35,782 bases of DNA from the IMG/VR virus record IMGVR_UViG_2651869830_000003. One strand, given 5' to 3'. Position numbers and translations under genes: made by a program. The stretch's first letter is position 1. Every line of letters begins with the position of its first letter. The stretch comes from a virus. Taxonomy: Duplodnaviria; Heunggongvirae; Uroviricota; Caudoviricetes. Shown here in pieces: positions 334-28,736 of this stretch. Under the pieces are notes generated by a model. The model saw only the letters and a list, made by a program, of their open reading frames with translations. It did no database searches and had not been told where the DNA came from.

Positions 334-492
334 GAATATTTTTTGGTAAGCGTCAAATATGCGCGTTCTGGCTGTGCGTAGCCGGAACCTGTGGGAGCAC
401 GATGCCGATAAGTGAAAGGCATCGTGCTATGAAGGAGGATTCTATCGATGTGGTCAATGGAAGACGGTTACCAGAGATAGGGCTTATGCATA

Positions 493-519
493 AAAAAATA
501 AGCCCGTGTAAGGGAGATT
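493..519. repeat. attL core, 27 bp: aaaaaataagcccgtgtaagggagatt.
   Basis: Identical 27-mer at 34260-34286. Sits 80 bp from the 3' end of the integrase gene. Confidence 0.85.
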
Positions 520-598
520 TAGGGTGTCACCAGTAGGGGCTTTCAACGGTACAATGCGGGTTTGAGCGGCATAAATTACCACTGAAAGCCCTTAAACG

Positions 599-1612: not shown

Positions 1613-1727
1613 CAGAAAACCCTCCGAGTGGTGTGTTTTTTGGCGACTACTAATCGCTTTTTTCGTGGTGGCTGAAATTTAGCCACCAATAGTAGGCACT
1701 TGTGATGAATATATTCACGATGAATTG

Positions 1728-2027
1728 TTAACCAGTCTTTTGACCGGAGTGGGGCGACGTTGTTTCGTTTTGCCCAAAGTGTGCGAGAGCGGGCGCAATT
1801 TGCCCGGACTCAGGAGCGATCTGATTGGTCATGAACCATAAAGTGTATTTGGTGAATTGTGGGGTCTGCAGGATGTTCATCATGACATCTGTTGGAGGTG
1901 TTGAACGACCACTTTCATAGTAACTCAGCGTGCCATACGGAACCCCTGTTAAATCAGCAAGTTGTTGTCTGCTCAAATACTCTGATTTTCGCATTAAGAC
2001 TATCTTCTCGCTTATCGTGTTTGACAT
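1728..2027 (-). CDS. C: Immunity repressor C, 99 aa, helix-turn-helix.
   Basis: Length and position match P2 C. HTH-like segment LSRQQLADLTGVPYGTLSYYESG. Divergent from cox. Confidence 0.85.
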   Translation of the reverse strand: MSNTISEKIVLMRKSEYLSRQQLADLTGVPYGTLSYYESGRSTPPTDVMMNILQTPQFTKYTLWFMTNQIAPESGQIAPALAHFGQNETTSPHSGQKTG

Positions 2028-2063
2028 GGTGTTTAGATCTCAATAGTATTTAGTTTAGATGTA
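2021..2063 (+). promoter_or_regulatory. Early promoter Pe: -35 TTGACA (2021-2026), 17-bp spacer, -10 TAGTAT (2044-2049). Direct-repeat operator half-sites TTTAGAT at 2032-2038 and 2054-2060, 22 bp apart, flank the -10.
   Basis: Sequence read directly. The layout matches the known P2 C operator (direct repeats flanking the Pe -10). Confidence 0.55.
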
Positions 2064-2141
2064 GATTGTTTAGTGCTTGGATGTGGGCACTAAAAGGCAT
2101 TATAAGGCATTAAACGCAATTCATGAGGGCTGGAGGACGAC

Positions 2142-2417
2142 ATGAGCAAGCAAGTAACACTCATGACTGATGCGATTCCTTATCAGGAGTTCGCAAAACT
2201 AATAGGAAAATCGACAGGAGCGGTTCGTCGGATGATCGATAAAGGAAAGCTGCCTGTAATTGATATGACCGATCCACAATCAGCTTCAGGTCGTGCTGGT
2301 GAATATTGGGTATACCTTCCGGCATGGAATAACGGACTAAAACTGGCTTATGAAAGCCGTCCTAAAGAGATTCGTGACGTCTGGTTGATGTGGTTAGGTC
2401 TCGGTGAACCACGTTAA
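2142..2417 (+). CDS. cox: Cox excisionase and transcriptional regulator, 91 aa.
   Basis: First gene of the rightward early operon. Length equals P2 Cox. SD ggagga upstream. Confidence 0.85.
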   Translation: MSKQVTLMTDAIPYQEFAKLIGKSTGAVRRMIDKGKLPVIDMTDPQSASGRAGEYWVYLPAWNNGLKLAYESRPKEIRDVWLMWLGLGEPR

Positions 2418-2427
2418 GGAGAACCGT

Positions 2428-2598
2428 ATGAATGAGCCTCGTTGTATTGCTCAGTTATTGCGTAACGAAAGCCCCAGGGCAATTGACTTCACAATCACCC
2501 ACGGTAAGGGGCGTAAGGGAATCATTATCCGCACCAAAAAACAGAGTCCGTTAAAAAAGGCTCTGACCTTTCTGAAAAGCCGGAGGGTCTGGAAATGA
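2428..2598 (+). CDS. Small early-operon protein, 56 aa, P2 orf78-like.
   Basis: ATG at 2428 preceded by aaggag. Track ORF 2404-2598 trimmed to the SD-supported start. Confidence 0.5.
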   Translation: MNEPRCIAQLLRNESPRAIDFTITHGKGRKGIIIRTKKQSPLKKALTFLKSRRVWK

Positions 2599-3095
2599 CA
2601 GTGATGACGCTCAATCTCGTTGAAAAACAGCCAGCAGCTATGCGCCGGATAATTGGTAAGCATCTGGCCGTCCCTCGCTGGCAGGAGACATGCGATTATT
2701 ATAATCAGATGATGGAACGCGAACGGCTAACGGTTTGCTTCCATGCGCAGTTAAAACAGCGTCACGCAACGATGCGTTTTGAAGAAATGAACGACGTCGA
2801 ACGTGAACGGCTGGTTTGTGCAATTGATGAATTGCGTGGGGCATTCTCAAAACGCCGTCAGGTTGGCGCAAGTGAGTATGCATATATTAGTTTTTTAACA
2901 GTCAGTCAGCGTCGTACTTTATTTATGCATGCCGGATTGACTGAAAAAGAATTCAACCAGCCATACTGGCGAATTAATGAAGAATCATGTTACTGGCGTG
3001 ATGCTTTATTCCGTGCATTACGTGAATTATTCAGCCTGTTTGAGTATGCACCGACAATTCTGACGTCGGTAAAACCAGAGCAATATCTGCATTAA
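2595..3095 (+). CDS. B: Replication protein B-like, 166 aa (helicase-loader function in P2).
   Basis: Position after cox. Length identical to P2 B. SD ggaggg upstream. Confidence 0.65.
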   Translation: MTVMTLNLVEKQPAAMRRIIGKHLAVPRWQETCDYYNQMMERERLTVCFHAQLKQRHATMRFEEMNDVERERLVCAIDELRGAFSKRRQVGASEYAYISFLTVSQRRTLFMHAGLTEKEFNQPYWRINEESCYWRDALFRALRELFSLFEYAPTILTSVKPEQYLH

Positions 3096-3158
3096 GTAAT
3101 TAACCAGCGTTTTTAACGCACTTAATTGTGCGGGGCTTCTTTTTGCCTGGAGAAAGTC

Positions 3159-3383
3159 ATGCATACAGTTTCTGAAAATCAGTGCGGTAAATACGCATTA
3201 CTGCTGCAACAGGCCAGAACCGAAGCACAGGCCGACGCGGCGACGCGCTTTTCTTCTCATCTTGACGCCATGATTCGCCACATCACAAAGGCGGAGTTAT
3301 CCCGCGTGGAGATAGTCGAGCTGCTCAGTCAGGAGTCGGAAAAATTTCACAATATCGGATTGTCTCGCGGGGAGGTACTTTGA
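3159..3383 (+). CDS. Early hypothetical protein, P2 orf80-like.
   Basis: ATG at 3159 with ggaga SD. Part of the tightly packed early operon. Confidence 0.5.
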
Positions 3384-3682
3384 TGTCCTGTTCTCATTCA
3401 GTTGTATTACTGAATAACGCCTTAAAAATCGCCGTTATGAAAAATGGCGATTTGTCTCTTATTCAACTTTGTCTTGATAAAGAAAAACGCGACATCACTG
3501 AATCTATTATCGCGATTTATCAGAATGAATTAAACCTCCTGTCTGATGTGGTCAATTTACTTGTTAAACGCGCTGTATTCCACAAGCAAATTTCCTCAGT
3601 GGATGAACTGACAAAATTAACGACAGAACTTGCCAGTTATTGCGCTGATGTATCCAGGAAACTTAACGATAAAAGGAGCTGA
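3383..3682 (+). CDS. Early hypothetical protein, 99 aa, P2 orf81-like.
   Basis: ATG at 3383 with ggggagg SD. The track start at 3380 is TTG. Confidence 0.5.
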   Translation: MSCSHSVVLLNNALKIAVMKNGDLSLIQLCLDKEKRDITESIIAIYQNELNLLSDVVNLLVKRAVFHKQISSVDELTKLTTELASYCADVSRKLNDKRS

Positions 3683-3684
3683 TA

Positions 3685-3909
3685 ATGCCGGACAACGTAG
3701 ATTTTATTCAGGAACAACAGGCTGAATTACTGGAGCGCCAGATTAACGCGGCAAGGGTAAAACATTGCGGTGCTTCTGCGCTGGTTTGCGAAGAGTGTGA
3801 CGCGCCAATACCTGCTGCCCGTCGTGCGGCTTATCCGTCAGCCACGCGTTGTGTTTCCTGTCAGTCAGTCTTTGAAGCAAAAAACAAACATTACCGGAGA
3901 ACGGCATGA
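3685..3909 (+). CDS. TraR/DksA-family C4 zinc-finger protein, 74 aa, P2 orf82-like.
   Basis: CxxC...CxxC motif (CEECDAPI...RCVSCQ). aaggag SD. Confidence 0.6.
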   Translation: MPDNVDFIQEQQAELLERQINAARVKHCGASALVCEECDAPIPAARRAAYPSATRCVSCQSVFEAKNKHYRRTA

Positions 3910-4181
3910 GTATTCGTATTGAAATTGGCGAACGTTATGTCGTTACCAGTGACAGCTTCCAGTTTATTCTCCACGAGAAAAAGAGAGCGGAAAGCGGTAA
4001 AAACGCCGGTCAGGAATGGCTGGCGGTGGTTGGTTATTACCCGAAATTAAGCCAGCTTGTTTCCGGCCTGATGCATCACGATATTCTGACCGGAAGCGCA
4101 AAGTCTTTTGCTGATTTAAACGCGCAGGTTGAGCAACTCAGCAGGCGTTGTTCAGAGGCTTTTGGCTCATATGGCCGTTAA
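3906..4181 (+). CDS. Early hypothetical protein, 91 aa, P2 orf83-like.
   Basis: Overlapping-stop operon organisation with ggaga SD. Confidence 0.5.
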   Translation: MSIRIEIGERYVVTSDSFQFILHEKKRAESGKNAGQEWLAVVGYYPKLSQLVSGLMHHDILTGSAKSFADLNAQVEQLSRRCSEAFGSYGR

Positions 4182-6456
4182 AGCCTCCGGGCGTTTTGTC
4201 CCTCCGTCAGCATTTTCCGCAGGCACCGGTAAGACGTTTGCCGGTGCTTATGCATGGAACGCGCCACGCGAGGCTGTCGGGCGCGAAAGACCCCTTACAC
4301 GTGACGAGATGCGTCAGGTGCAAGGTGTTTTATCCACGATTAACCGCCTGCCTTACTTTTTGCGCTCGCTGTTTACTTCACGCTATGACTACATCCGGCG
4401 CAATAAAAGCCCGGTGCACGGGTTTTATTTCCTCACATCCACTTTTCAGCGTCGTTTATGGCCGCGCATTGAGCGTGTGAATCAGCGCCATGAAATGAAC
4501 ACCGAAGCGTCGATGCTGTTTCTGGCTGAGCGTGACCACTATGCGCGTCTGCCGGGGATGAATGACAAGGAGCTGAAAAAGTTTGCCGCCCGTATCTCAT
4601 CGCAGCTTTTCATGATGTATGAGGAACTCTGCGATGCCTGGGTGGATGCGCATGGCGAAAAAGAATCGCTGTTTACGGATGAGGCGCAGGCGCATCTGTA
4701 TGGTCATGTTGCTGGCGCTGCACGTGCTTTCAATATTTCCCCGCTTTACTGGAAAAAATACCGTAAAGGACAGATGACCACGAGGCAGGCATATTCTGCC
4801 ATTGCCCGTCTGTTTAACGATGAGTGGTGGACTCATCAGCTTAAAGGCCAGCGTATGCGCTGGCATGAAGCGTTACTGATTGCTGTCGGGGAGGTCAATA
4901 AAGACCGTTCTCCTTATGCCAGTAAACACGCCATTCGTGATGTGCGTGCGCGCCGCCAGGCAAATCTGGAATTTCTTAAATCGTGTGACCTTGAAAACAG
5001 GGAAACCGGCGAGCGCATCGACCTTATCAGTAAGGTGATGGGCAGTATTTCTAATCCTGAAATTCGCCGGATGGAGCTGATGAACACCATTGCCGGTATT
5101 GAGCGTTACGCCGCAGCAGAGGGTGATGTGGGGATGTTTATCACGCTGACCGCGCCGTCAAAGTATCACCCGACACGTCAGGTCAGAAAAGGCGAAAGTA
5201 AAACCGTCCAGCTAAATCACGGCTGGAACGATGAGGCATTTAATCCAAAGGATGCGCAGCGTTATCTCTGCCGTATCTGGAGCCTGATGCGCACGGCATT
5301 CAAGGATAATGATTTACAGGTCTACGGTTTGCGTGTCGTCGAGCCACACCACGACGGAACGCCGCACTGGCATATGATGCTTTTTTGTAATCCACGCCAG
5401 CGTAACCAGATTATCGAAATCATGCGTCGCTATGCGCTCAAAGAGGATGGTGACGAAAGAGGAGCCGCGCGAAACCGTTTTCAGGCAAAGCACCTTAACC
5501 GGGGCGGTGCTGCGGGATATATCGCGAAATACATTTCAAAAAATATCGACGGCTATGCACTGGATGGTCAGCTCGATAACGATACCGGTAAGCCGCTTAA
5601 AGATACTGCCGCGGCTGTTACCGCATGGGCGTCAACGTGGCGCATCCCGCAATTTAAAACGGTTGGCCTGCCGACAATGGGGGCTTACCGTGAACTACGC
5701 AAATTGCCTCGCGGCGTCAGTATTGCTGATGAGTTTGACGAACGCGTCGAGGCTGCTCGCGCTGCCGCAGACAGTGGTGATTTTGCGTTGTATATCAGCG
5801 CGCAGGGCGGGGCAAATGTCCCGCGCGATTGTCAGACTGTCAGGGTCGCCCGTAGCCCGTCGGATGAAGTTAACGAGTACGAGGAAGAAGTCGAGAGAGT
5901 GGTCGGCATTTACGCGCCGCATCTCGGCGCGCGTCATATTCATATCACCAGAACGACGGACTGGCGCATTGTTCCGAAAGTGCCGGTCGTTGAGCCTTTG
6001 ACTTTAAAAAGCGGCATCGCCGCGCCTCGGAGTCCTGTCAATAACTGTGGAAAGCTCACCGGTGGTGATACTTCGTTACCGGCTCCCACACCTTCTGAAC
6101 ACGCTGCAGCAGTGCTTAATCTGGTTGATGACGGTGTTATCGAATGGAATGACACGGAGGTCGTGAGGGCGCTCAGGGGGGCATTAAAACACGACCTGAG
6201 AACACCAAATCGTCAGCAAAGAAACGGAAGCCCGTTAAAACCACATGAAATTGCACCATCGGCCAGACTGACCCGGTCGGAAAGAATGCAAATTACCCGT
6301 ATCCGCGTTGACCTTGCTCAGAACGGTATCAGGCCGCAGCGATGGGAGCTTGAGGCGCTGGCGCGTGGCGCGACCGTAAATTATGACGGGAAAAAATTCA
6401 CGTATCTGGTAGATGAGGAGTGGCTGGAGGATATAACGGATATTAAGTGGAGCTAA
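4171..6456 (+). CDS. A: Rolling-circle replication initiator A (HUH endonuclease), 761 aa.
   Basis: ATG at 4171 gives exactly 761 aa as in P2 A (the track start at 4129 is TTG). HUH-like HWHMMLF and paired-tyrosine GYIAKYISK motifs. Confidence 0.9.
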   Translation: MAVKASGRFVPPSAFSAGTGKTFAGAYAWNAPREAVGRERPLTRDEMRQVQGVLSTINRLPYFLRSLFTSRYDYIRRNKSPVHGFYFLTSTFQRRLWPRIERVNQRHEMNTEASMLFLAERDHYARLPGMNDKELKKFAARISSQLFMMYEELCDAWVDAHGEKESLFTDEAQAHLYGHVAGAARAFNISPLYWKKYRKGQMTTRQAYSAIARLFNDEWWTHQLKGQRMRWHEALLIAVGEVNKDRSPYASKHAIRDVRARRQANLEFLKSCDLENRETGERIDLISKVMGSISNPEIRRMELMNTIAGIERYAAAEGDVGMFITLTAPSKYHPTRQVRKGESKTVQLNHGWNDEAFNPKDAQRYLCRIWSLMRTAFKDNDLQVYGLRVVEPHHDGTPHWHMMLFCNPRQRNQIIEIMRRYALKEDGDERGAARNRFQAKHLNRGGAAGYIAKYISKNIDGYALDGQLDNDTGKPLKDTAAAVTAWASTWRIPQFKTVGLPTMGAYRELRKLPRGVSIADEFDERVEAARAAADSGDFALYISAQGGANVPRDCQTVRVARSPSDEVNEYEEEVERVVGIYAPHLGARHIHITRTTDWRIVPKVPVVEPLTLKSGIAAPRSPVNNCGKLTGGDTSLPAPTPSEHAAAVLNLVDDGVIEWNDTEVVRALRGALKHDLRTPNRQQRNGSPLKPHEIAPSARLTRSERMQITRIRVDLAQNGIRPQRWELEALARGATVNYDGKKFTYLVDEEWLEDITDIKWS

Positions 6457-6526
6457 TGATAATTTAACTCCTCGGAATAGAATGTTATGTTCGTTCTTGA
6501 TAACTGATAATGAGTGATTTAAAAAA

Positions 6527-6552
6527 AGCCATGTTATGTTACTAACATGGCT
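6527..6552. terminator. Bidirectional rho-independent terminator between the convergent A and reverse transcriptase genes.
   Basis: 10-bp perfect stem agccatgtta/taacatggct with a 6-nt loop, A7 tract on one side and T tract on the other. Confidence 0.55.
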
Positions 6553-6560
6553 TTGGGATA

Positions 6561-8108
6561 TTAATTGCTGTGCTCTTTAAAGAATAGATTAACTTCTTCA
6601 GGTGTTATATTGTCATCCATTTTATCAAATTTATCTGTGTCAACGATTTTTGTTTTTCTTAGCAAGGATAATATCTTGGCTTTATTGGGACTCGTTTCTT
6701 TTCCTTGGATCCAGTCAATATTCCATAAATTATTTACAGAAAATGTTTTCTCTTTTGTGAGTTCATCATTTATACGGACGCATAGAGCTGACTTATAAGA
6801 TTTATTCCACTCTAGGTTTATTTTTGCTTGAGTTCGCTGAAACCATATCTCAAGCATTTCTGTATTGGGTTGTTTATCCAGTTTTTTATGGAGTTGTTCT
6901 AGCTTTGTTAATTTTTTTTGGGTGTCATCACCATAAAGAAAACTGAGGAGTTTTGAGAAAATTGCCGTTCCTACTGGGTACGTTGTAGGGTTTTTTGCCA
7001 TGATGCTTGAAATAATACCAAGCATGGCATCAACCTGTTGGCCGTTATCTTTAATTGCCTTTCGCTTAAACAAATTCCTAAGAAAATCATTTAGATATCT
7101 AACGGTTGTTTTCGAGTTTGGATGCTTAAGTGAAAATAAATATATTGAATAGAGCATTTTCTGGAGTGACTTATGTCTTTTTTCTTTGATGTAGTCTTTT
7201 TTGGCTTGTTTCAACGAATGAAGTATGATGTCTTCATATAGTTCAGTTTTTTTTGAGTTTAGATCTAAACCAAAATCGCCCAACACATTGACTAAACATT
7301 TTGATATTATGTCTAAATCATCTTTGCTATTAGAGAAGATCCGGTAATCATCACGGTAGCGTACTACCTTGTAGTTTATTATTTTAAGTTCGTTAGTTTT
7401 TTTTCTTAATTCTATATCGATTTGACCCAAGATAAGCTCAGCAAATGTATCCATCAATGTGCTGCCGAGTGGAATACCATTTGTCTGGTTGTTCATCATC
7501 ATTTGAATGTGGCTGTCAATTAATCCCCCTGGGTTATTTTTGTTTTTTTTCTTCTTAGCATCTTCTTTTGATATGAATACCCATTCAAAACTATGAGTAT
7601 ATATTGATGGGTAGAAGTTTGAGATGTCAGTGCTGAACATGAATTCGTATTCAAGAGCAAGGGCAAGGCTTTTTTGTTCAAAATCTTCCCACCAATTCAT
7701 TACAGACGCAGCAATGTTTGACGAGTTGTCTTTTCTGACGGGGATGCTTGAACATGTAAAAAGATCGTTTGATTCAAAAGATTTGAATTTTTCTGTTATG
7801 ATTTCCCAGGTTGTTGGTGCTGTGATTTTTCTACAGAAGTAGACATAATAAAGGGGATTTATAAGTGTTATCCTACGCCAGCTATATAGACCATCTTTAC
7901 TGAGAAGCACCTCATAATTGATATCTTTACCCATCAGCTCCTTGGCGGTTGGTTCAATTTTAATTTTTTTGTTATGGATAGATGAATTAATATCATTTAA
8001 TAATGTGGTGAAATTAATATAAGCCGGTAATTCTAAGGTTGTGTAGGAGTCATGGCGAAGAAAATATGACAGTGCTTCTTCACTGGTTAGTTCATATACT
8101 TTTTTCAT
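6561..8108 (-). CDS. Reverse transcriptase, 515 aa, single-gene Abi-type (probably Abi-P2 class), with a C-terminal alpha-helical domain of unknown function.
   Basis: RT motifs in the N-terminal half: FSTDISNFYPSIY, GIPLGSTLMDTFAELILG, and YRDD catalytic box at 7347-7358 on the minus strand. Strongly AT-rich. Occupies the P2 tin/old site. Confidence 0.8.
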   Translation of the reverse strand: MKKVYELTSEEALSYFLRHDSYTTLELPAYINFTTLLNDINSSIHNKKIKIEPTAKELMGKDINYEVLLSKDGLYSWRRITLINPLYYVYFCRKITAPTTWEIITEKFKSFESNDLFTCSSIPVRKDNSSNIAASVMNWWEDFEQKSLALALEYEFMFSTDISNFYPSIYTHSFEWVFISKEDAKKKKNKNNPGGLIDSHIQMMMNNQTNGIPLGSTLMDTFAELILGQIDIELRKKTNELKIINYKVVRYRDDYRIFSNSKDDLDIISKCLVNVLGDFGLDLNSKKTELYEDIILHSLKQAKKDYIKEKRHKSLQKMLYSIYLFSLKHPNSKTTVRYLNDFLRNLFKRKAIKDNGQQVDAMLGIISSIMAKNPTTYPVGTAIFSKLLSFLYGDDTQKKLTKLEQLHKKLDKQPNTEMLEIWFQRTQAKINLEWNKSYKSALCVRINDELTKEKTFSVNNLWNIDWIQGKETSPNKAKILSLLRKTKIVDTDKFDKMDDNITPEEVNLFFKEHSN

Positions 8109-8298
8109 GAGGATAATGCTCTTGTTAGGGATGATGTTTTTTTATCATGAAATTGAAGGTATTGCGAGAGGCAGTAGTGCATTTGACTGCGTCTATTTGC
8201 ATGTGTTTTTGATAACGGTTTTTGTAATCAGGATGGAGCGCAGCACTGAGGAGCGGAACATAATGCAACTGCATTAAAACCGACCCATGAAGCGGGCG

Positions 8299-16800: not shown

Positions 16801-17230
16801 TGCCGTCACGGTGCTGAAAACCAGTCCAGAGATGCTTCGGATATTCGTGGATAACGGGAGTATTGCCTCCACGCTGGCGACGTCGCTGTCGTTCGAAAAG
16901 CGTTACACGCTCAATGTGATTGTGACCGACTTTACCGGTGATTTTGACCTGCTCATCGTGCCGGTGCTGGCGTGGCTGCGGGAAAATCAGCCCGACATCA
17001 TGACCACCGACGAAGGTCAGAAAAAAGGTTTCACGTTTTATGCAGACATCAACAATGACAGCAGCTTTGATATCAGCATCAGTCTGATGCTGACCGAGCG
17101 AACGCTGGTCAGTGAGGTGGACGGCGCACTGCATGTGAAGAATATCCCGGAACCTCCGCCGCCGGAGCCGGTCACCCGCCCGGTGGAGCTTTATATCAAT
17201 GGCGAACTGGTGAGCAAGTGGGATGAATGA
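16763..17230 (+). CDS. R: Tail completion protein R, 155 aa.
   Basis: Length and position match P2 R. Confidence 0.8.
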   Translation: MLKPDSLRRALTDAVTVLKTSPEMLRIFVDNGSIASTLATSLSFEKRYTLNVIVTDFTGDFDLLIVPVLAWLRENQPDIMTTDEGQKKGFTFYADINNDSSFDISISLMLTERTLVSEVDGALHVKNIPEPPPPEPVTRPVELYINGELVSKWDE

Positions 17231-17675
17231 GTTTAAGCGTTTTGAAGACCGGCTGACCGGACTTATTGAATCGCTGTCACCGTCAGGGCGTCGGCGACTG
17301 AGCGCCGAACTGGCGAAACGTCTGCGGCAGAGTCAGCAGCGCCGGGTGATGGCACAGAAAGCCCCGGACGGCACACCCTACGCACCACGCCAGCAGCAGA
17401 GCGCCAGAAAAAAGACCGGTCGCGTTAAGCGAAAAATGTTTGCGAAACTTATCACCAGTCGTTTTTTGCATATCCGCGCCAGCCCGGAACAGGCAGCAAT
17501 GGAATTTTACGGCGGGAAGTCACCGAAAATCGCCAGTGTGCATCAGTTTGGTCTGCCGGAAGAAACCCGGAAAGACGGTAAGAAAATTGATTATCCGGCG
17601 CGTCCTCTGCTCGGCTTTACCGGTGAGGATGTGCAGATGATTGAAGAGATTATTCTGGCTCACCTGAATCGCTAG
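17223..17675 (+). CDS. S: Tail completion protein S, 150 aa.
   Basis: Length and position match P2 S. Confidence 0.8.
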   Translation: MNEFKRFEDRLTGLIESLSPSGRRRLSAELAKRLRQSQQRRVMAQKAPDGTPYAPRQQQSARKKTGRVKRKMFAKLITSRFLHIRASPEQAAMEFYGGKSPKIASVHQFGLPEETRKDGKKIDYPARPLLGFTGEDVQMIEEIILAHLNR

Positions 17676-17778: not shown

Positions 17779-18852
17779 TTACTTGCCATTTTTCAATGCG
17801 TTGATTAACGATGCTATTTGTTCAATACCATCAAATGTAGATGGTATCTTATCATCGGATAGCATGATGTTTGAAAATACTACGTCTTCAAATTTTGAAA
17901 GCGCTTCCGGATTGTTTTTCCTTATCTCTGAGGAATAGTCGCTATAACTCTGAATGAACTGACAAAGGCTCTTTCTGAGTTCTATTTGCATAATCTGAGT
18001 TCGTAACGATATATGATTTATCAGTACAACTCTAAAGTAATACATGAAAATCAATGTAACTGATGCAAAAGGTAGTGCTGACATAAAATATGTGGCAGCA
18101 TTTGTCGTTTCGAGAGTTGGTAATTTATGCATTCCATAGTATATCAGCGGGGAGGGAATGATTATAGCCAAGATGATAAGAATTATTCTTGATAGCATGA
18201 TTTCACTTTCTTTCTTTTTGCCAAGTGAATTAAAGCCATCAAACAATCCAACAAAATTAAATGCGACCTCATACCCTTTTAATGACTCTTTAATTGACTC
18301 TATTTTGGCATGTTGCTCCTTTAAGAAGGAGTCGCACTTTTCGAAAAATTGACGCCCTTCGTTTAAACTATCAATGTATTTTTTATATGTGTCAACATTG
18401 CTGGAGCTTAAAACTTCTTTAACCATTGCTAATGGCAGTTCTCTAAGAGAAAAGTCTATCTGTGCTCTGCTCCGCTCATCGAATTCATTATAGTTATACA
18501 GAGCAAAATCCTTGATGGTTCTTAGTGGTGAAAAGTGAGACTCTATTTCCGGAGAGAGAATGCTTGGTTCAATGATAAATCTAAAAAAGCAAGTGAATAT
18601 AAGGTTGATGCTGTTGTTATCTTCTCCCTTTTCTCTTAAGAAACTTTTAAAGGTGTCGCCAATCATAGCAATGTTGTACTGGGATTTTTTGTCCCAATCT
18701 TCAGGGTTTTCGGAAATGAAGTTTATTGCTTGAGCAATTATTTTGTTTCTGTTTGATTCAAAGTTTGTGCCGGGAGTCAGCGTGTTCAAAAAGACCAGAT
18801 AATCTTTGAACAATTCTTTCATTGTTTCTGACGAGAAAAAGTAAGTACTCAT
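17779..18852 (-). CDS. Hypothetical membrane protein with two predicted transmembrane helices in its C-terminal third; AT-rich accessory (moron) gene at the P2 orf30 site. Start uncertain: ATG at 18852 preferred over GTG at 18948.
   Basis: Strong AT-rich compositional break inside a GC-rich tail operon. Opposite strand to neighbours. Hydrophobic segments ILSRIILIILAIIIPSPLIYYG and ATYFMSALPFASVTLIFMYYFRVVLI. Confidence 0.6.
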   Translation of the reverse strand: MSTYFFSSETMKELFKDYLVFLNTLTPGTNFESNRNKIIAQAINFISENPEDWDKKSQYNIAMIGDTFKSFLREKGEDNNSINLIFTCFFRFIIEPSILSPEIESHFSPLRTIKDFALYNYNEFDERSRAQIDFSLRELPLAMVKEVLSSSNVDTYKKYIDSLNEGRQFFEKCDSFLKEQHAKIESIKESLKGYEVAFNFVGLFDGFNSLGKKKESEIMLSRIILIILAIIIPSPLIYYGMHKLPTLETTNAATYFMSALPFASVTLIFMYYFRVVLINHISLRTQIMQIELRKSLCQFIQSYSDYSSEIRKNNPEALSKFEDVVFSNIMLSDDKIPSTFDGIEQIASLINALKNGK

Positions 18853-18938
18853 AATGGATTTTGTTGTCCCTTGTTGTTCTGTGCACCAGAAATCGTGGTG
18901 TGATTTACTTCGAGATTGTACAGAATCATTATTATCGA

Positions 18939-19568
18939 ATGAATGCACAATACAATGAAATTCTTCGCTTTATACGCAATATGATTCGCACTGGCATTAT
19001 CGTCGAAACCGACCTTAATGCCGGTCGCTGCCGTGTGCAGACCGGCGGCATGTGCACCGACTGGCTTCAGTGGCTGACCCATCGCGCTGGGCGTTCGCGC
19101 ACATGGTGGGCACCTTCCGTGGGGGAACAGGTGCTGATTCTGGCCGTGGGCGGTGAACTCGACACGGCGTTCGTTCTGCCGGGGATTTATTCCGGCGATA
19201 ACCCAGCGCCGTCTGCGTCGTCTGATGCCCTGCATATCCGTTTCCCTGACGGGGCGGTGATTGAGTATGAACCCGAAACCAGTGCACTCACGGTAAGCGG
19301 AATTAAAACGGCCAGCGTGACGGCTTCTGATTCTGTTACTGCCACGGTGCCGGTGGTCATGGTGAAAGCATCAACCCGCGTCACCCTGGACACACCGGAG
19401 GTGGTCTGCACCAACAGGCTGATTACCGGCACGCTGGAAGTGCAGAAGGGCGGGACGATGCGCGGCAACATTGAACACACCGGCGGTGAACTCTCATCAA
19501 ACGGTAAGGTACTGCATACCCATAAACACCCCGGCGACAGCGGCGGCACAACCGGGAGCCCTCTATGA
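18939..19568 (+). CDS. V: Baseplate spike/assembly protein V, 209 aa.
   Basis: ATG at 18939 (MNAQYNEIL). Length close to P2 V (211 aa). First gene of the V-W-J-I-H-G operon. Confidence 0.85.
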   Translation: MNAQYNEILRFIRNMIRTGIIVETDLNAGRCRVQTGGMCTDWLQWLTHRAGRSRTWWAPSVGEQVLILAVGGELDTAFVLPGIYSGDNPAPSASSDALHIRFPDGAVIEYEPETSALTVSGIKTASVTASDSVTATVPVVMVKASTRVTLDTPEVVCTNRLITGTLEVQKGGTMRGNIEHTGGELSSNGKVLHTHKHPGDSGGTTGSPL

Positions 19569-21358: not shown

Positions 21359-23404
21359 ATGAGCACAAAATTCAGAACCGTTATCACCACTGCCGGTGCA
21401 GCAAAGCTGGCAGCGGCAACCGCACCGGGAGGGCGGAAGGTCAACATTACCACGATGGCCGTCGGGGATGGCGGTGGTAAATTGCCTGTCCCGGATGCCG
21501 GACAGACCGGACTTATCCATGAAGTCTGGCGACATGCGCTGAACAAAATCAGCCAGGACAAACGAAACAGTAATTATATTATCGCAGAGCTGGTTATTCC
21601 GCCGGAGGTGGGCGGTTTCTGGATGCGTGAGCTTGGCCTGTACGATGATGCGGGAACATTAATTGCCGTGGCGAACATGGCCGAAAGTTATAAGCCAGCT
21701 CTCGCCGAAGGCTCAGGGCGTTCGCAGACCTGTCGCATGGTCATCATCGTCAGCAGTGTGGCCTCAGTGGAGCTGACCATTGACACCACAACAGTGATGG
21801 CGACGCAGGATTACGTTGATGACAAAATTGCAGAGCACGAACAGTCACGACGTCACCCGGACGCCTCGCTGACCGCCAAAGGTTTTACTCAGTTAAGCAG
21901 TGCGACCAACAGCACGTCTGAAACACTGGCCGCAACGCCGAAAGCGGTAAAGGCCGCGTATGACCTTGCTAACGGGAAATATACTGCGCAGGATGCCACC
22001 ACAGCGCGAAAAGGTCTTGTCCAGCTCAGTAGTGCCACCAACAGCACGTCTGAAACGCTCGCTGCAACACCAAAAGCCGTTAAGACGGTAATGGATGAAA
22101 CGAACAAGAAAGCGCCATTAAACAGCCCTGCACTGACCGGAACGCCAACGACGCCAACTGCGCGACAGGGAACGAATAATACTCAGATCGCAAACACGGC
22201 TTTCGTTATGGCCGCGATTGCCGCCCTTGTAGACTCGTCGCCTGACGCACTGAATACGCTGAACGAGCTGGCGGCGGCGCTGGGCAATGACCCGAATTTT
22301 GCTACCACCATGACTAATGCGCTTGCGGGTAAGCAACCGAAAGATGCTACCCTGACGGCGCTGGCGGGGCTTGCTACTGCGGCAGACAGGTTTCCGTATT
22401 TTACGGGGAATGATGTTGCCAGCCTGGCAACCCTGACAAAAGTCGGGCGGGATATTCTGGCTAAATCGACCGTTGCCGCCGTTATCGAATATCTCGGTTT
22501 ACAGGAAACGGTAAACCGAGCCGGGAACGCCGTGCAAAAAAATGGCGATACCTTGTCCGGCGGGCTTACTTTTGAAAACGACTCAATCCTTGCCTGGATT
22601 CGAAATACTGACTGGGCAAAGATTGGATTTAAAAATGATGCCGACAGCGATACTGATTCATATATGTGGTTTGAAACAGGTGACAACGGCAATGAATATT
22701 TCAAATGGAGAAGTCGCCAGAGCACCACAACAAAAGACCTGATGAATCTTAAATGGGATGCTCTGTATGTTCTTGTTAAAGCCCTTTTCAGCAGTGAAGT
22801 AAAAATATCTACAGTCAATGCGCTGAGGATATTTAATTCATCTTTTGGTGCTATTTTTCGCCGTTCTGAAGAAAACCTGTATATCATTCCTACACGAGAA
22901 AATGAGGGTGAAAATGGAGATATTGGGCCATTAAGGCCATTCGGCATCAACTTAAGAACAGGAGTTGTGTCTGTTGGTAATGGTGCCAGGATTGATGGCG
23001 GGCTGGCACTTGGCACGAATAACGCGTTGGGTGGGAACTCTATTGTTCTTGGTGATAACGACACCGGATTTAAACAAAATGGCGATGGTAATCTGGATGT
23101 TTATGCTAATAACGTCCATGTTATGCGCTTTGTTTCCGGAAGCATTCAAAGTAATAAGACCATAAATATTACGGGGCGTGTTAATCCCTCGGATTACGGT
23201 AACTTTGATTCCCGCTATGTGAGAGATATCAGACTTGGCACACGTGTTGTCCAGACCATGCAGAAAGGGGTGATGTATGAGAAAGCAGGGCACGTAATTA
23301 CCGGGCTTGGTATTGTCGGTGAAGTCGATGGTGATGACCCCGCAGTATTCAGGCCAATACAAAAATACATCAATGGCACATGGTATAACGTCGCACAGGT
23401 GTAA
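21359..23404 (+). CDS. H: Tail fiber protein H, 681 aa.
   Basis: Position matches P2 H. Conserved N-terminal region, then repeated QLSSATNSTSETLAATPKAVK motifs and a lower-GC C-terminal part. Confidence 0.85.
   Translation: MSTKFRTVITTAGAAKLAAATAPGGRKVNITTMAVGDGGGKLPVPDAGQTGLIHEVWRHALNKISQDKRNSNYIIAELVIPPEVGGFWMRELGLYDDAGTLIAVANMAESYKPALAEGSGRSQTCRMVIIVSSVASVELTIDTTTVMATQDYVDDKIAEHEQSRRHPDASLTAKGFTQLSSATNSTSETLAATPKAVKAAYDLANGKYTAQDATTARKGLVQLSSATNSTSETLAATPKAVKTVMDETNKKAPLNSPALTGTPTTPTARQGTNNTQIANTAFVMAAIAALVDSSPDALNTLNELAAALGNDPNFATTMTNALAGKQPKDATLTALAGLATAADRFPYFTGNDVASLATLTKVGRDILAKSTVAAVIEYLGLQETVNRAGNAVQKNGDTLSGGLTFENDSILAWIRNTDWAKIGFKNDADSDTDSYMWFETGDNGNEYFKWRSRQSTTTKDLMNLKWDALYVLVKALFSSEVKISTVNALRIFNSSFGAIFRRSEENLYIIPTRENEGENGDIGPLRPFGINLRTGVVSVGNGARIDGGLALGTNNALGGNSIVLGDNDTGFKQNGDGNLDVYANNVHVMRFVSGSIQSNKTINITGRVNPSDYGNFDSRYVRDIRLGTRVVQTMQKGVMYEKAGHVITGLGIVGEVDGDDPAVFRPIQKYINGTWYNVAQV
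21890..22084 (+). repeat. Two copies of a 63-nt imperfect direct repeat (21890-21952 and 22022-22084) encoding the tail-fiber motif QLSSATNSTSETLAATPKAVK.
   Basis: Repeat seen at both nucleotide and protein level within H. Confidence 0.7.
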
Positions 23405-23407
23405 TTT

Positions 23408-23935
23408 ATGCAGCATTTAAAAAATATTACTGCGGGTAATCCAAAAACTGTTGCCCAATATCAACTGACAAAAAATTTTGATGTTATCTGGTTATGGTCC
23501 GAAGAGGGAAAAAACTGGTATGAGGAAGTAAGTAATTTTCAGGAAGACACGATAAAGATTGTTTACGACGAGAATAATATAATTGTCGGCATCACCAGAG
23601 ATGCTTCAACGCTTAACCCTGAAGGTTTCAACGTTGTCGAGGTTCCTGATATTACCTCCAACCGACGTGCTGATGACTCAGGTAAATGGATGTTTAAGGA
23701 TGGTGCCGTGATTAAGCGGATTTATACGGCAGATGAACAGGAGCAACAGGCAGAATCACAAAAGGCAGCTTTACTTTCCGAAGCTGAATCCGTGATTTTG
23801 CCGCTGGAACGCGCTGTCAGGCTGAATATGGCGACGGATGAGGAACGCAGCCGACTGGAAGCATGGGAACGCTACAGCGTTCTGGTCAGTCGTGTGGATC
23901 CTGCAAATCCCGAATGGCCGGAAATGCCGCAATAA
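23408..23935 (+). CDS. G: Tail fiber assembly chaperone G, 175 aa.
   Basis: Length and position match P2 G, immediately after H. Confidence 0.8.
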
Positions 23936-24218
23936 GTTGTATGATCTCTGGTGTGAGCTTACATATCTATAGCACAGAGTAAAGCCTAATCTGACAGTCC
24001 GCTATGTGCCAGGAGCGGAAGTAGCAAACCAGATTTTACTGAAGCTTGAGCAGAGATACCACCAACTGATGCCTATCAGTAATGGGGCTCTTGATGATTC
24101 AAATAAAAAAGATTAAATTGATTAAGATTATTCTTACTTGATTAATTGTTTTGCGCATGGGCTTGGAAAACCATGAATCAGATCTTCACTAGATAAAACA
24201 ACGAACTATGGAGGAAGC

Positions 24219-25310
24219 GTGGGCGGCGAAACTAAGAATATTGATGAGATTGCAGGTATCATTTCCAGTAGAATTTTTGATGAGTTAGGCTGGAAAACCC
24301 AAAATACAACGGATATAAGTTGGGACTGTTGTTTGAGATCTCATCTAAACGCTAAACAACTTTTATCTGAAAACCCAAAAAAAACTCATCCTACGGATGT
24401 AGTCTTCAAATATAAAGATCCTTATTCAGATATAACTCAGTATATACAAACAGATTTAAAATCTTATTGTGCCAGCACGCTTGACGGTACAAAATCAATA
24501 TTGAACACTGTACGAAGTTTATCACAACAGGTAGCTTGCGCGCCAAGAAGTCCTGAGTGGCGGCGTCTATTTGTTGACAGCACAAATGAGAAATATCAAG
24601 TTAACGGCCTACTTTTTATATATAATCATGACAATAAATATGACTCTGATTTAATTGAGAAATTAAATGGAGCAGCCACAGCAAGTTATGATTTTCCAGA
24701 GAACTCTGTGATTGCCGTTTTTGACCCAACTATGATCAGATTTTTACTAGATGTTACAGAACACATCGAGACTAGAAGAGGAATTACTGACAAAGTAACA
24801 CAAGAAACAAATATGTTATGGCAAAAAATTCCTGAGATAGAGAACTGTACATATTTTTACCCTGACAAACATAATAAAATAGCAACGAAAGGGAAAATCC
24901 TTCCAGCCACAATTGAAATGATAACATCTGGGATGATTTTTTACTCATATGAACACGAATATATTAGAAATGATGGTGGCGATAGAATAAGAAATAAAAT
25001 ATTGAATATATTCTGGAAGGAAGAGGTTGATTCCAGTAACCACTTTATATTTCTTTTAGAGTATATATTTAACTATCAATTACTCAATCAATTTGACAAA
25101 ATATTTGTTATAACTCCGTTCTCATCACACTCAAGCATTCATTTGCAATCCGCCATTAATGATTACATAGGAATATATTCTTTCACTCAATCTCATATAG
25201 AAACGTTAAAGGAAAAAATAGTATCCATTCCTTTTGTTAATCAAAAGCTATCTATATTTGAGTACCAGGTTGCCAGCAAGCAGGTGAATAGAAAATGTCA
25301 CTTTTCATAA
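24219..25310 (+). CDS. Hypothetical protein, 363 aa, first gene of an AT-rich three-gene accessory operon; GTG start. No recognisable domain; a weak PD-(D/E)xK-like pattern sits near the N-terminus.
   Basis: Strong SD ggagga 5-10 nt upstream of GTG at 24219. AT-rich. In the P2 Z/fun slot between G and FI. Confidence 0.7.
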   Translation: MGGETKNIDEIAGIISSRIFDELGWKTQNTTDISWDCCLRSHLNAKQLLSENPKKTHPTDVVFKYKDPYSDITQYIQTDLKSYCASTLDGTKSILNTVRSLSQQVACAPRSPEWRRLFVDSTNEKYQVNGLLFIYNHDNKYDSDLIEKLNGAATASYDFPENSVIAVFDPTMIRFLLDVTEHIETRRGITDKVTQETNMLWQKIPEIENCTYFYPDKHNKIATKGKILPATIEMITSGMIFYSYEHEYIRNDGGDRIRNKILNIFWKEEVDSSNHFIFLLEYIFNYQLLNQFDKIFVITPFSSHSSIHLQSAINDYIGIYSFTQSHIETLKEKIVSIPFVNQKLSIFEYQVASKQVNRKCHFS

Positions 25311-25320
25311 GGAGTATGAC

Positions 25321-26568
25321 ATGAATAAATATCAAGCTACGTTGTTTTCAAACGAAAGTGACATTTATACCGCCCTCCACTCTAACAGTGCAAAAATCAC
25401 AGATGTTACATTAAGGAAAATCGCCTTCAATAGAGGGATAATTTTCCCATCTAACTTATCAAAAGAGGTATTGATAGAAAAATTATCAGACCTGCCATTT
25501 TCATATAATCACATCAGAGAAGTACAAGATAAACTGGCAACCAAACCCAGCCAAGACGTCTTCTCAGTAAAACGTATATATGAAGAATTTGATATAGAGA
25601 AACTCTATGACGTTGTAAACAAAGTGAAAGAAAATAGACCCAAGTTGCTAGGGCATGAGAAAATTGATCATTACTCAGGCTTGCAAACCTATCATATATC
25701 TATTGATTATACTGAGTTTGATTTTAGAAGGGGTAAGTTTCAGCAGAAAAAATTGTACAGTGGGAGTATAGTTTTTATAGTAAAAAAAGGATATGTTTCA
25801 GTAAGATATAACTATACGCCACGCATTTCAGAAATTCTCAAGCAAATAATTGATACATATTCATCAACAGTTTGTAACAACATAGTTGTCAACGAAATAG
25901 ATTTATCAAGTATCGTCGATACAGATCTTAGGAATATTTTTGCTGTTCATCTTTATGATTTTGATGGAAATTATAAAAAAACAGGACTTGAATATGCTGG
26001 TCTTGAAAAGGTTAGAGTAAGCAGAATAAAAACATCTCTGGATATTAATGGAGATAATCTCGAAGGAAATAATAACGAAGAAACACAAGAGTTATTAAAC
26101 AAGATTTCACCTTCTACAGATAACGAAAATGATGATGACATTAATAATCAGGAAATGGCATCTGACGATGATGAAAACCTAACTTTTAACATTAACAATG
26201 CCGCGTATGATGGCCTATCATTAGTGAACGCACCTCAAATTAAGGAACTGTGCCGTGATGGGTTTTATCGAAGCTTAATTCGATGGAAGTCATTTTCCTC
26301 AGTAGTTAAGAATCATACTATAACTTTTGAACTTAGTTTCGATGATAAATATCTTGGGAAAAATATAAAATTCAGAGCGTTATACAAAGAAAGCAACTCT
26401 GCATCCGCAGAGAGAGAAAAACTCAGTGACGCAGACTTTGATCAAGTCATGAAACAATTAGAAGATAAAATATTTTTGATTAATGACTTTATTATCGAAG
26501 AGCATACCAAGCGATACCCAGTAACGAAAGCTATGTCTTGCGAGACTTTGAATCAGGAGGCTGGATGA
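25321..26568 (+). CDS. Hypothetical protein, 415 aa, second gene of the accessory operon; contains a roughly 45-aa acidic low-complexity linker.
   Basis: aaggag SD 7 nt upstream of ATG at 25321. Same strand and composition as the flanking cassette genes. Confidence 0.7.
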   Translation: MNKYQATLFSNESDIYTALHSNSAKITDVTLRKIAFNRGIIFPSNLSKEVLIEKLSDLPFSYNHIREVQDKLATKPSQDVFSVKRIYEEFDIEKLYDVVNKVKENRPKLLGHEKIDHYSGLQTYHISIDYTEFDFRRGKFQQKKLYSGSIVFIVKKGYVSVRYNYTPRISEILKQIIDTYSSTVCNNIVVNEIDLSSIVDTDLRNIFAVHLYDFDGNYKKTGLEYAGLEKVRVSRIKTSLDINGDNLEGNNNEETQELLNKISPSTDNENDDDINNQEMASDDDENLTFNINNAAYDGLSLVNAPQIKELCRDGFYRSLIRWKSFSSVVKNHTITFELSFDDKYLGKNIKFRALYKESNSASAEREKLSDADFDQVMKQLEDKIFLINDFIIEEHTKRYPVTKAMSCETLNQEAG

Positions 26569-27221
26569 TGATAAAGGTAAAAATTTATAAAGCAGAAAAG
26601 GATATAACTAAAAGTGAGTTATTACATAAAGTAAATGACAACCTCTATGATGAAGATAAAGGATATGGTTTTCAAATCATTAATAACTCTGAAGTGCTTA
26701 AACTAAGATTTACCATGAGAAGCATTAGCAAGCAAAGCTTAGAATATGCTAATGGCGAGCGTTCAGAGGTTGAAATAGCAACTTACTTAAATGTGGACTT
26801 TGGCGTCAGACAAGGGAAAAAAATCATACTATATGCCACTAATCCTCCATTAAGTATGAAAGTGCCTTATACTATGGTGCAAAAACTATTTGGTGAAGAT
26901 AGTGGCTTGAGACCAGTAGAATTTGATCTGAGAAAAATTGTAAATGGTCTTTCTGAGGGCTTTGACATCAAGATAAAATCCATGTCTCTATCTAATATCT
27001 CTGTTGATCCTTTTACTTTAGCAAAGACAAAAATAGTAAGCTCAAAGAATCTCCAAGAAATTTATCAGAATAAATACATGAATAGTTCGGCCGTTTTTGA
27101 TTCCGTACATTTCTTCGTTAACGGAATTGAAACGGAATTATCTAGGACGGGTAGATTCCGTGTGAGAGAGAGTCAGCTTCCAACACTTTTATCCATCTTA
27201 GAAACTCTCAGAATTTTGTGA
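26565..27221 (+). CDS. Hypothetical protein, 218 aa, third gene of the accessory operon.
   Basis: ATGA stop/start overlap with the upstream gene (translational coupling). ggagg SD. The track start at 26538 is trimmed to the ATG at 26565. Confidence 0.65.
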   Translation: MMIKVKIYKAEKDITKSELLHKVNDNLYDEDKGYGFQIINNSEVLKLRFTMRSISKQSLEYANGERSEVEIATYLNVDFGVRQGKKIILYATNPPLSMKVPYTMVQKLFGEDSGLRPVEFDLRKIVNGLSEGFDIKIKSMSLSNISVDPFTLAKTKIVSSKNLQEIYQNKYMNSSAVFDSVHFFVNGIETELSRTGRFRVRESQLPTLLSILETLRIL

Positions 27222-27238
27222 AATATATAAGGAACTCA

Positions 27239-27265
27239 GGCCTACTTCGTCAGTAGGCCCCTTTT
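27239..27265 (+). terminator. Rho-independent terminator of the three-gene accessory operon.
   Basis: Perfect 8-bp stem ggcctact/agtaggcc with loop tcgtc, followed by ccttttcc, 18 nt after the stop at 27221. Confidence 0.55.
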
Positions 27266-27426
27266 CCGGTTTGTACTTATCTAGTCATCGATTTGATCGT
27301 AATGATTCACACAGGATGCTGTTAGCAATGTCCGCTCTTCGCTCAAAGCAGACTGTCAGATTTGATAGCGTTTTGGCTATGTAAATTGTCAGTCGGGAAA
27401 TAAGTGAGTACAAATCATGACAGGCG

Positions 27427-27449
27427 GGCGGATTGTCCGCCTTTTCTTT
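27427..27449 (+). terminator. Second hairpin plus T-tract on the plus strand upstream of FI; possibly the ancestral G-operon terminator.
   Basis: ggcgga-ttg-tccgcc followed by ttttcttt. Confidence 0.35.
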
Positions 27450-27545: not shown

Positions 27546-28736
27546 ATGAGTGACTATCATCACGGCGTGCAGGTGCTGGAGATTAACGAGGGCACCCGCG
27601 TCATTTCCACTGTATCCACGGCCATTGTCGGCATGGTCTGCACGGCCAGCGATGCGGATGCGGAAACCTTCCCCCTCAATAAACCTGTGCTGATTACCAA
27701 TGTGCAGACCGCAATTGCAAAGGCCGGTAAAAAAGGCACGCTGGCGGCATCGTTGCAGGCCATCGCCGACCAGTCAAAACCAGTGACTGTTGTTGTGCGC
27801 GTGGAAGACGGCACCGGCGACGACGAGGAAACGAAACTCGCGCAGACCGTTTCCAATATCATCGGCACCACTGACGAAAACGGTCAGTACACCGGACTGA
27901 AAGCCCTGCTGGCGGCGGAGTCGGTAACCGGTGTTAAACCGCGTATTCTCGGTGTGCCGGGACTGGATACCAAAGAGGTGGCTGTTGCACTGGCATCCGT
28001 CTGTCAGAAGCTGCGCGCTTTCGGGTATATCAGCGCATGGGGCTGTAAGACCATTTCCGAGGTGAAAGCCTACCGCCAGAATTTCAGCCAGCGTGAGCTG
28101 ATGGTCATCTGGCCGGATTTCCTCGCATGGGATACGGTCACCAGTACCACCGCCACCGCGTATGCCACCGCCCGTGCGCTGGGTCTGCGCGCTAAAATCG
28201 ACCAGGAGCAGGGCTGGCATAAAACGCTGTCCAATGTCGGGGTGAACGGTGTTACCGGCATCAGCGCATCCGTCTTCTGGGATTTGCAGGAGTCCGGCAC
28301 CGATGCTGACCTGCTTAACGAGTCAGGCGTCACTACGCTGATTCGCCGCGACGGTTTCCGTTTCTGGGGTAACCGTACCTGCTCTGATGACCCGCTGTTC
28401 CTCTTTGAAAACTACACCCGCACCGCGCAGGTGCTGGCCGACACGATGGCTGAGGCGCACATGTGGGCGGTGGACAAGCCCATCACTGCAACGCTGATTC
28501 GCGACATCGTTGACGGCATCAATGCCAAATTCCGTGAGCTGAAAACAAACGGCTATATCGTGGATGCGACCTGCTGGTTCAGCGAAGAATCCAACGATGC
28601 GGAAACCCTTAAGGCCGGAAAACTGTATATCGACTACGACTATACCCCGGTGCCTCCTCTTGAAAACCTGACCCTGCGCCAGCGTATTACCGATAAATAT
28701 CTGGCAAATCTGGTCACCTCGGTTAACAGCAATTAA
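27546..28736 (+). CDS. FI: Contractile tail sheath protein, 396 aa.
   Basis: Length and position match P2 FI. Confidence 0.9.
   Translation: MSDYHHGVQVLEINEGTRVISTVSTAIVGMVCTASDADAETFPLNKPVLITNVQTAIAKAGKKGTLAASLQAIADQSKPVTVVVRVEDGTGDDEETKLAQTVSNIIGTTDENGQYTGLKALLAAESVTGVKPRILGVPGLDTKEVAVALASVCQKLRAFGYISAWGCKTISEVKAYRQNFSQRELMVIWPDFLAWDTVTSTTATAYATARALGLRAKIDQEQGWHKTLSNVGVNGVTGISASVFWDLQESGTDADLLNESGVTTLIRRDGFRFWGNRTCSDDPLFLFENYTRTAQVLADTMAEAHMWAVDKPITATLIRDIVDGINAKFRELKTNGYIVDATCWFSEESNDAETLKAGKLYIDYDYTPVPPLENLTLRQRITDKYLANLVTSVNSN

Follow-up and report, generated by a model that had tools for sequence, protein, structure and literature searches.

The DNA analysed here is a 35,782-nt stretch from a virus (IMG/VR record IMGVR_UViG_2651869830_000003; "the window" denotes this whole stretch). 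The window contains a P2-like prophage with integrase, gene A, portal, terminase, capsid, lysis, baseplate and tail genes. Between the tail fibre assembly gene G and the tail sheath gene FI, this prophage carries an operon of three genes encoding the proteins Hp1, Hp2 and Hp3. The operon is, with high confidence, a divergent member of 3HP (Hp1-Hp2-Hp3), the 'hp+hp+hp' anti-phage system, carried as cargo of the G-FI (fun/Z) hotspot. We take 'hp+hp+hp' to be the system listed as Rst_3HP in DefenseFinder. Hp1 is the predicted effector, by sequence a PD-(D/E)xK nuclease of the PDDEXK_GAPS4 family, and in structural models Hp2 and Hp3 have the RdgC/RexA/Chl4-Iml3 DNA-clamp fold with base plus centre domains. 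A mechanism is proposed below in which a clamp formed by Hp2 and Hp3 would license Hp1 to degrade DNA. Membership in 3HP together with this mechanism is the favoured explanation as a whole, and the balance tips slightly towards it.

The window proteins matched the PADLOC models of 3HP in the gene order Hp1-Hp2-Hp3 on one strand. Hp1 matched PDLC03004 (E = 5e-41, profile positions 1-273 of 333) and Hp3 matched PDLC03006 (E = 3.8e-11, profile positions 2-190 of 227), while the match of Hp2 to PDLC03005 (E = 7.5e-11) covers only profile positions 6-209 of 359 and might fail a coverage cut-off. The three models are essentially the single sequences of E. coli E1114, which score E = 1e-239 against them, compared with 5e-41 to 4e-11 for the window variant; divergent 3HP branches are therefore likely to be under-counted. 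The window proteins were also compared by BLASTP with the E1114 proteins (sequences from Table S2A of Rousset et al. 2022). Identity was 33% over 318 amino acids for Hp1 (E = 9e-49), 24% over 202 amino acids for Hp2, in the N-terminal half only (E = 7e-12), and 22% over 206 amino acids for Hp3 (E = 2e-12). Because of these matches, the operon can be placed as a distant homologue of a catalogued and validated system. The E1114 'hp+hp+hp' genes, cloned with their native promoter on plasmid pFR109, protect against phage P1 (Rousset et al. 2022, PMC9122126). Both systems consist of three co-directional genes in the same order, with products of 333/359/227 amino acids in E1114 and 363/415/218 in the window, and both are cargo of P2-like prophages. 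They differ in location, as the E1114 copy occupies the A-Q (old/tin) hotspot and the window copy the G-FI (fun/Z) hotspot. The occurrence of 3HP at G-FI is unreported in the searched literature. Judged from sequence, anti-phage defence is the most likely role of the window cassette.

These results bear on the original prediction, which had described the operon as a candidate for an undescribed defence system. That claim falls, as all three proteins match 3HP, validated by Rousset et al. 2022 (PMC9122126). Its more cautious wording, that the operon may be one of the poorly characterised multi-gene systems from P2 hotspots, was apt for what proved to be a distant 3HP homologue. Confident matches of the whole trio to a well-characterised system had been named as a ground for refutation. 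This ground applies only by half: the defence function of 3HP is validated, but the searched literature yielded no account of how it works.

The three-gene arrangement is widely maintained. At E <= 1e-3, 580 clusters at 50% identity belong to the Hp1 family, and 266 of them reach E <= 1e-30. Loci on viral contigs (n = 75) were examined for synteny wherever at least 2.1 kb of downstream sequence was available (67 loci). The order Hp1-Hp2-Hp3 was kept in 66 of the 67, with junctions of about -31 to +14 nt, and the single exception was a marginal partial match. With 580 clusters and this degree of synteny, the arrangement is therefore not a matter of chance. The three genes are also kept where Hp1 is 28-30% identical (Pseudomonas, Psychrobacter, Vibrio) or 43% identical (Leclercia), and most of these loci lie in prophages or integrase-bearing islands.

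Megablast searches detected the 3.36-kb cassette as a block in 11 of 5,426 complete E. coli genomes. Besides the window, only one copy occupies the P2 G-FI slot, that of the near-identical prophage MDK9L1. Nine copies have the same block borders. Two of these nine were inspected (ES5 and LD39-1), and both belong to Rac-type lambdoid prophages, where the immunity/DUF977 region lies on one side of the cassette and nin-like genes on the other; the Rac-type copies are 99.8-99.9% identical to the window. A copy at 96.8% identity, with similar borders, is part of an element that also has trbJ/trbL, IS3 and an integrase. From its presence in P2-like, Rac-type and conjugative-element-like contexts it follows that the cassette moves as a unit between unrelated mobile elements. 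It is self-contained and horizontally acquired. In strain 30COLEC, ISApl1 interrupts the cassette, which would be a natural knock-out.

The identification of Hp1 as a nuclease rests on a conserved motif and on profile comparisons. An invariant H57-P-x-D60 ... D79-L-K81 (HPTD...DLK) carries the PD-(D/E)xK signature, and HPxD...DxK is present in 195 of 218 members of the Hp1 family. The original prediction had found neither an assignable motif nor a transmembrane segment in the three proteins; the motif of gene 1 overturns the first part and the second part stands, as no 19-residue segment reaches a Kyte-Doolittle value of 1.6 (maximum 1.04 in Hp1-Hp3). In precomputed annotation, Pfam PF26115 (PDDEXK_GAPS4) is assigned to 71 of 71 Hp1 homologues, including the 100%-identical cluster, and an identical protein in recent RefSeq is named 'PD-(D/E)XK nuclease domain-containing protein'. 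Pfam and NCBIfam scans of Hp1, Hp2 and Hp3 returned nothing, which for Hp1 and Pfam could be attributed to a gap in the library, as GAPS4a itself was unmatched there too. The Hp1 family profile aligned with GAPS4a(RiKo) at 96.5% probability in hhalign (E = 8e-10, 208 columns, Hp1 residues 5-251); GAPS4 sequences were taken from the supplementary files of the GAPS4 preprint. In turn, GAPS4a matches the PADLOC Hp1 model with E = 2.9e-5.

In a joint MAFFT alignment of Hp1 and GAPS4a, W25, C37, H57, D60, C107, L132 and F133 are invariant in both families. Hp1 D60 aligns with GAPS4a D49, whose replacement by alanine abolishes GAPS4 defence (GAPS4 preprint, Mahata et al.), and Hp1 D79-L-K81 faces S-x-K of GAPS4a within one residue of register. 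The best 150 matches of the Hp1 representative search were all of 3HP type and did not extend as far as GAPS4a. Searches of PDB sequences with the Hp1, Hp2 and Hp3 family profiles gave nothing significant.

For Hp2 and Hp3 the relationship to known proteins was found at the level of modelled structure. RdgC (E. coli PDB 2owl; P. aeruginosa PDB 2owy) was the top structural match of both, at 7-10% identity in the structural alignments. With the Hp3 model, Foldseek returned only six significant matches, all of them RdgC (two species) or Iml3/CENP-L. Neither protein has a Pfam RdgC match or sequence similarity to RdgC. Proteins of the fold class RexA/RdgC/IML3/CHL4 bind DNA without sequence specificity, whether they form homodimeric rings or pair up as a large-plus-small heterodimer; RdgC and Iml3-Chl4 grip DNA by a basic pore or cradle, and lambda RexA shares the fold (PMC11077077).

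Each of these relatives resembles the window proteins in part. RdgC is toroidal and binds double-stranded DNA (dsDNA) without sequence specificity, but it is a stand-alone homodimer that regulates RecA and has no nuclease operon, whereas Hp2 has in addition a SAP-like domain and an acidic linker. The Chl4-Iml3 and CENP-N-CENP-L pairs are heterodimers of a large (about 460 amino acids) and a small (about 220-245 amino acids) subunit that cradle DNA, a size ratio mirrored by Hp2 and Hp3. They are eukaryotic, however, and have no nuclease partner, and the resemblance is one of fold only. Lambda RexA (PDB 8twq) is, like the proteins studied here, prophage-encoded; it is an exclusion protein with the RdgC fold and binds DNA. 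A RexAB-like system was considered and rejected, as Hp1-Hp3 include no membrane partner like RexB.

Among characterised systems, GAPS4 (Mahata et al., bioRxiv 10.1101/2023.03.28.534373, 10.1101/2025.09.07.674715) is the closest by sequence. According to a 2025 preprint, GAPS4 is an a2b2 complex with GAPS4a mounted on a ring of two GAPS4b subunits, and it degrades phage and host DNA upon sensing DNA breaks, acting by abortive infection; DNA breaks are a sufficient trigger and no phage escape mutants were isolated (bioRxiv 10.1101/2025.09.07.674715). In both systems the first gene encodes a homologous PD-(D/E)xK nuclease (over about 210 residues) and is directly followed by the second, and the N-terminal domain of GAPS4b is common to Hp2. 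GAPS4b forms a ring, and Hp2 has, in its model, a ring-forming fold. The differences lie in the motif (HGxD...SxK in GAPS4a, HPxD...DxK in Hp1) and in the gene number, as GAPS4 consists of two genes or one fused gene without Hp3, and the window operon of three. Ten GAPS4 loci from diverse genomes all showed the two-gene layout, with no Hp3-like gene in any.

The Hp2 and Hp3 profiles gave no signal with a single GAPS4b sequence. Only after broadening on both sides did the Hp2 profile match a GAPS4b profile (E = 1.2e-5, co-linear from residue 1), reversed-profile controls giving E = 0.5-0.7. Hp1 had no match at E <= 1 to the NCBIfam model GapS4a (NF047933), for which the control GAPS4a(RiKo) scored 291 bits (cut-off 270), and neither Hp2 nor Hp3 matched GapS4b (NF047934), for which GAPS4b(RiKo) scored 324 bits (cut-off 300). 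3HP is therefore a relative of GAPS4 and not a member. A derivation of Hp3 from a split-off C-terminal part of GAPS4b was rejected, since the two show no similarity and GAPS4b (about 370-385 amino acids) is already of the size of Hp2. No joint mention of 3HP and GAPS4 was found in the searched literature. A Kiritimatiellae metagenome-assembled genome contains an Hp1 plus Hp2-like pair (5968-8110 of locus extract L004) with no recognisable Hp3, adjoining a PLD-helicase and a large methyltransferase. This pair may link 3HP and GAPS4 as a two-gene intermediate, or it may be a copy that has decayed.

A mechanism can be proposed from these comparisons. Hp2 and Hp3 would assemble as a clamp or horseshoe around dsDNA, by analogy probably as a large-plus-small heterodimer like Chl4-Iml3, and the SAP-like N-terminus of Hp2 would add a further DNA contact. 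The Hp1 nuclease would dock on this scaffold. When the clamp meets free DNA ends or aberrant DNA arising during infection, Hp1 would be licensed to degrade DNA, and the outcome would be destruction of the invader or abortive infection. The idea of a heterodimer comes from genes 2 and 3, which invariably occur together with overlapping junctions, from the size analogy with Chl4-Iml3, and from the fact that GAPS4 manages with a homodimer of one such protein. For this clamp-licensed DNase we infer that a complex forms and binds DNA, what triggers it, which DNA it degrades and that this variant confers defence; the mechanism is plausible, although its chances stay somewhat below even. More tentative still is the broader proposal that 3HP and GAPS4 are two branches of one DNA-state-sensing nuclease family, in which a heterodimeric Hp2-Hp3 clamp replaces the GAPS4b homodimer ring and gates the PD-(D/E)xK DNase.

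Several observations weigh against the favoured explanation. The window variant is only 22-33% identical to the validated E1114 system, which protected against just one of eight phages (PMC9122126). The PF26115 assignment of Hp1 is precomputed only and was not reproduced, the Pfam set scanned here being without PF26115. The signal between Hp2 and GAPS4b comes mainly from the N-terminal domain (E = 1.8e-6), with a weak contribution of the middle domain (E = 2e-4), and is absent from the C-terminal domain of Hp2, which has no detectable similarity to GAPS4b. Hp3 matched no part of GAPS4b and thus has no sequence counterpart in GAPS4, and profile comparisons detected no sequence relationship between Hp2 and Hp3. 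The two might each form a homodimeric ring instead of a heterodimer. For RexA, DNA binding by the RdgC fold need not be required for exclusion (PMC11077077), and the source of the GAPS4 mechanism is a preprint that is not peer reviewed. Finally, the promoter scan found no sigma-70 consensus upstream of gene 1. The leader contains weak promoter candidates only (8/12 matches around 24086-24147, read by eye), and the sigma70-like promoter that had earlier been placed at about 24090-24150, already with the remark that it was weak, was not borne out.

The same components could also respond to another trigger. Hp2 and Hp3 would then be RexA-like and sense a phage protein-DNA complex or an intermediate of replication or recombination, with Hp1 taking the effector role of RexB. 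The fold shared with RexA leaves room for such a trigger, but RdgC and Iml3 match structurally better than RexA, whose match is weak. Moreover, the closest system by sequence is GAPS4, in which DNA breaks suffice and escape mutants were not obtained (bioRxiv 10.1101/2025.09.07.674715). Such a trigger appears unlikely.

A cassette that does not primarily serve defence seems more improbable still. It could be a DNA-metabolism module of benefit to the prophage, combining an RdgC-like modulator of RecA or recombination with a nuclease, or an addiction module that stabilises the element. The cloned homologous three-gene system gave phage resistance from its native promoter (PMC9122126), which argues against either role, even though RdgC itself regulates recombination (PMC11077077). 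The Rac-type copies belong to the early region, with recE, racC and kilR a few kb away, and a nuclease restrained by partner proteins resembles a toxin-antitoxin arrangement; both features would suit such a module. Against it, the slots of the cassette are otherwise filled by defence genes, GAPS4 included, the cassette travels as a unit among unrelated mobile elements, and the Hp1-family loci on viral contigs include just one with P2 H-G surroundings and one with a Rac-type setting.

PD-(D/E)xK enzymes include RNases and structure-specific nucleases, and the acidic linker of Hp2 (12 D/E in 40 residues) could inhibit the system itself by mimicking DNA, or could serve to bind other proteins. That Hp1 acts on something other than bulk dsDNA (RNA, tRNA or a specific DNA structure), with Hp2 and Hp3 only as scaffolds or inhibitors, is nonetheless the least probable of the alternatives, given that GAPS4a, the closest homologue to have been characterised, breaks down both phage and host DNA in vivo (bioRxiv 10.1101/2025.09.07.674715) and that every characterised relative of the Hp2/Hp3 fold binds dsDNA (PMC11077077).

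The features of the locus are collected in the table. The gene structure given in the original prediction was confirmed, with three co-directional genes of the sizes stated and an ATGA overlap between genes 2 and 3 on which the open reading frame calls and RefSeq agree; RefSeq annotates the three coding sequences identically in MDK9L1. The stop/start overlap suggests translational coupling of Hp2 and Hp3. The strong ribosome-binding site that had been noted is present upstream of gene 1, and the description as an AT-rich insert of 3.3 kb is upheld by the GC content, which is 0.55-0.59 in the backbone and only 0.30-0.36 over about 24.2-27.2 kb. The terminator that had been placed at 27239-27265 was supported in part. 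The hairpin is real (27239-27259, an 8-bp GC-rich stem, -13.4 kcal/mol, z = -3.0), but it was missed by the consensus terminator scan because its tail contains only four T. The stem-loop after gene 3 is thus a probable, weak-tailed intrinsic terminator.

Table. Positions of the operon, its protein domains and its surroundings (window coordinates unless another sequence is named).
Feature	Position	Strand	Description
Mobile cassette block	23997-27354	+	Megablast borders; positions 62-3419 of the query segment 23936-27545
Upstream leader	23997-24218	+	Part of the mobile cassette; strong ribosome-binding site GGAGGA at 24208-24213
Hp1 gene (gene 1)	24219-25310	+	363 amino acids; GTG start; GGAGGA 6 nt upstream
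Hp1 candidate catalytic residues	D60 at 24396-24398; D79 at 24453-24455; K81 at 24459-24461		E4, H57, D60, D79, K81
Hp2 gene (gene 2)	25321-26568	+	415 amino acids
Hp2 predicted N-terminal SAP/HeH-like helical domain	residues ~12-72		
Hp2 predicted RdgC-fold body	residues ~81-235 and 286-400		
Hp2 predicted disordered acidic linker	26047-26166 (residues 243-282)		12 D/E versus 1 K/R
Hp3 gene (gene 3)	26565-27221	+	218 amino acids; start overlaps Hp2 stop (ATGA); predicted compact RdgC/Iml3-fold protein
Stem-loop, probable terminator	27239-27267	+	GGCCUACU / AGUAGGCC, 5-nt loop, then CCUUUUCC; inside the mobile block
Tail fibre gene H	21359-23404		Upstream of G
Gene G, tail fibre assembly	23408-23935	+	Left border of the hotspot
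Backbone terminator-like hairpin	27422-27442		Upstream of FI
Gene FI, tail sheath	27546-28736	+	Right border of the hotspot; tube gene FII beyond
GAPS4(RiKo) pair	2675-4748 of locus extract L018 (EH01-18-02, NZ_CP063518.1)		

The location of the insert had also been described correctly. In genome comparison, fun(Z) sits between G and FI in phage P2, and this position is the second defence-enriched locus of P2 (Vassallo et al. 2022, PMC9519451). P2 fun(Z), an exclusion gene that blocks T5, shares the position of the window cassette but is an unrelated single gene of 528 amino acids on the opposite strand. Of 5,426 complete E. coli genomes, 1,022 gave matches to sequence that flanks the cassette, mainly the FI-proximal part. 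The comparison of the G-FI interval with P2 and other P2-like prophages that had been recommended showed the slot to be occupied by fun(Z), GAPS4(RiKo) and other cargoes. Elsewhere in E. coli these include HNH endonucleases, a restriction endonuclease accompanied by two hypothetical genes, a DUF2971 gene paired with a transglutaminase-like one, a peptidase of the S1 family and numerous hypothetical proteins. The GAPS4(RiKo) pair (WP_028132563.1 and WP_028132564.1) occupies the G-FI slot of a P2-like prophage of E. coli EH01-18-02 (NZ_CP063518.1) in the same orientation. The main text of the GAPS4 preprint does not mention this G-FI context.

At the A-Q (old/tin) hotspot, the window encodes a 515-amino-acid reverse transcriptase (6561-8108, - strand; PADLOC AbiP2, DRT class, E = 1.3e-161; Pfam RVT_1), which brings the defence cargoes of the prophage to at least two. 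In the MDK9L1 prophage, nearly identical otherwise, a DEAD/DEAH helicase gene takes this position. A further gene (17779-18948, - strand) encodes a 389-amino-acid protein between the virion-morphogenesis gene (17223-17675) and baseplate gene V; about 1.2 kb around it is missing from the MDK9L1 prophage. A stretch of the protein around residues 246-310 is hydrophobic (Kyte-Doolittle maximum 2.40), and the protein has no Pfam or PADLOC match. It is an uncharacterised moron and possibly a further candidate for exclusion or abortive infection.

What is new here is a structural identity for each 3HP gene, a GAPS4a-type nuclease and two RdgC-fold proteins as predicted, together with a link to GAPS4. 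Related nuclease systems compete for one P2 slot. If 3HP and GAPS4 are indeed two branches of one family, this would provide the first mechanism for 3HP and would make Hp2-Hp3 a bacterial counterpart of Chl4-Iml3/CENP-N-CENP-L. RexA, RdgC, GAPS4b, Hp2 and Hp3 would then share one module, a 'DNA clamp as infection sensor' that recurs in immunity encoded by phages. With the structural identities and the link to GAPS4, the black-box 3HP system becomes a testable one.

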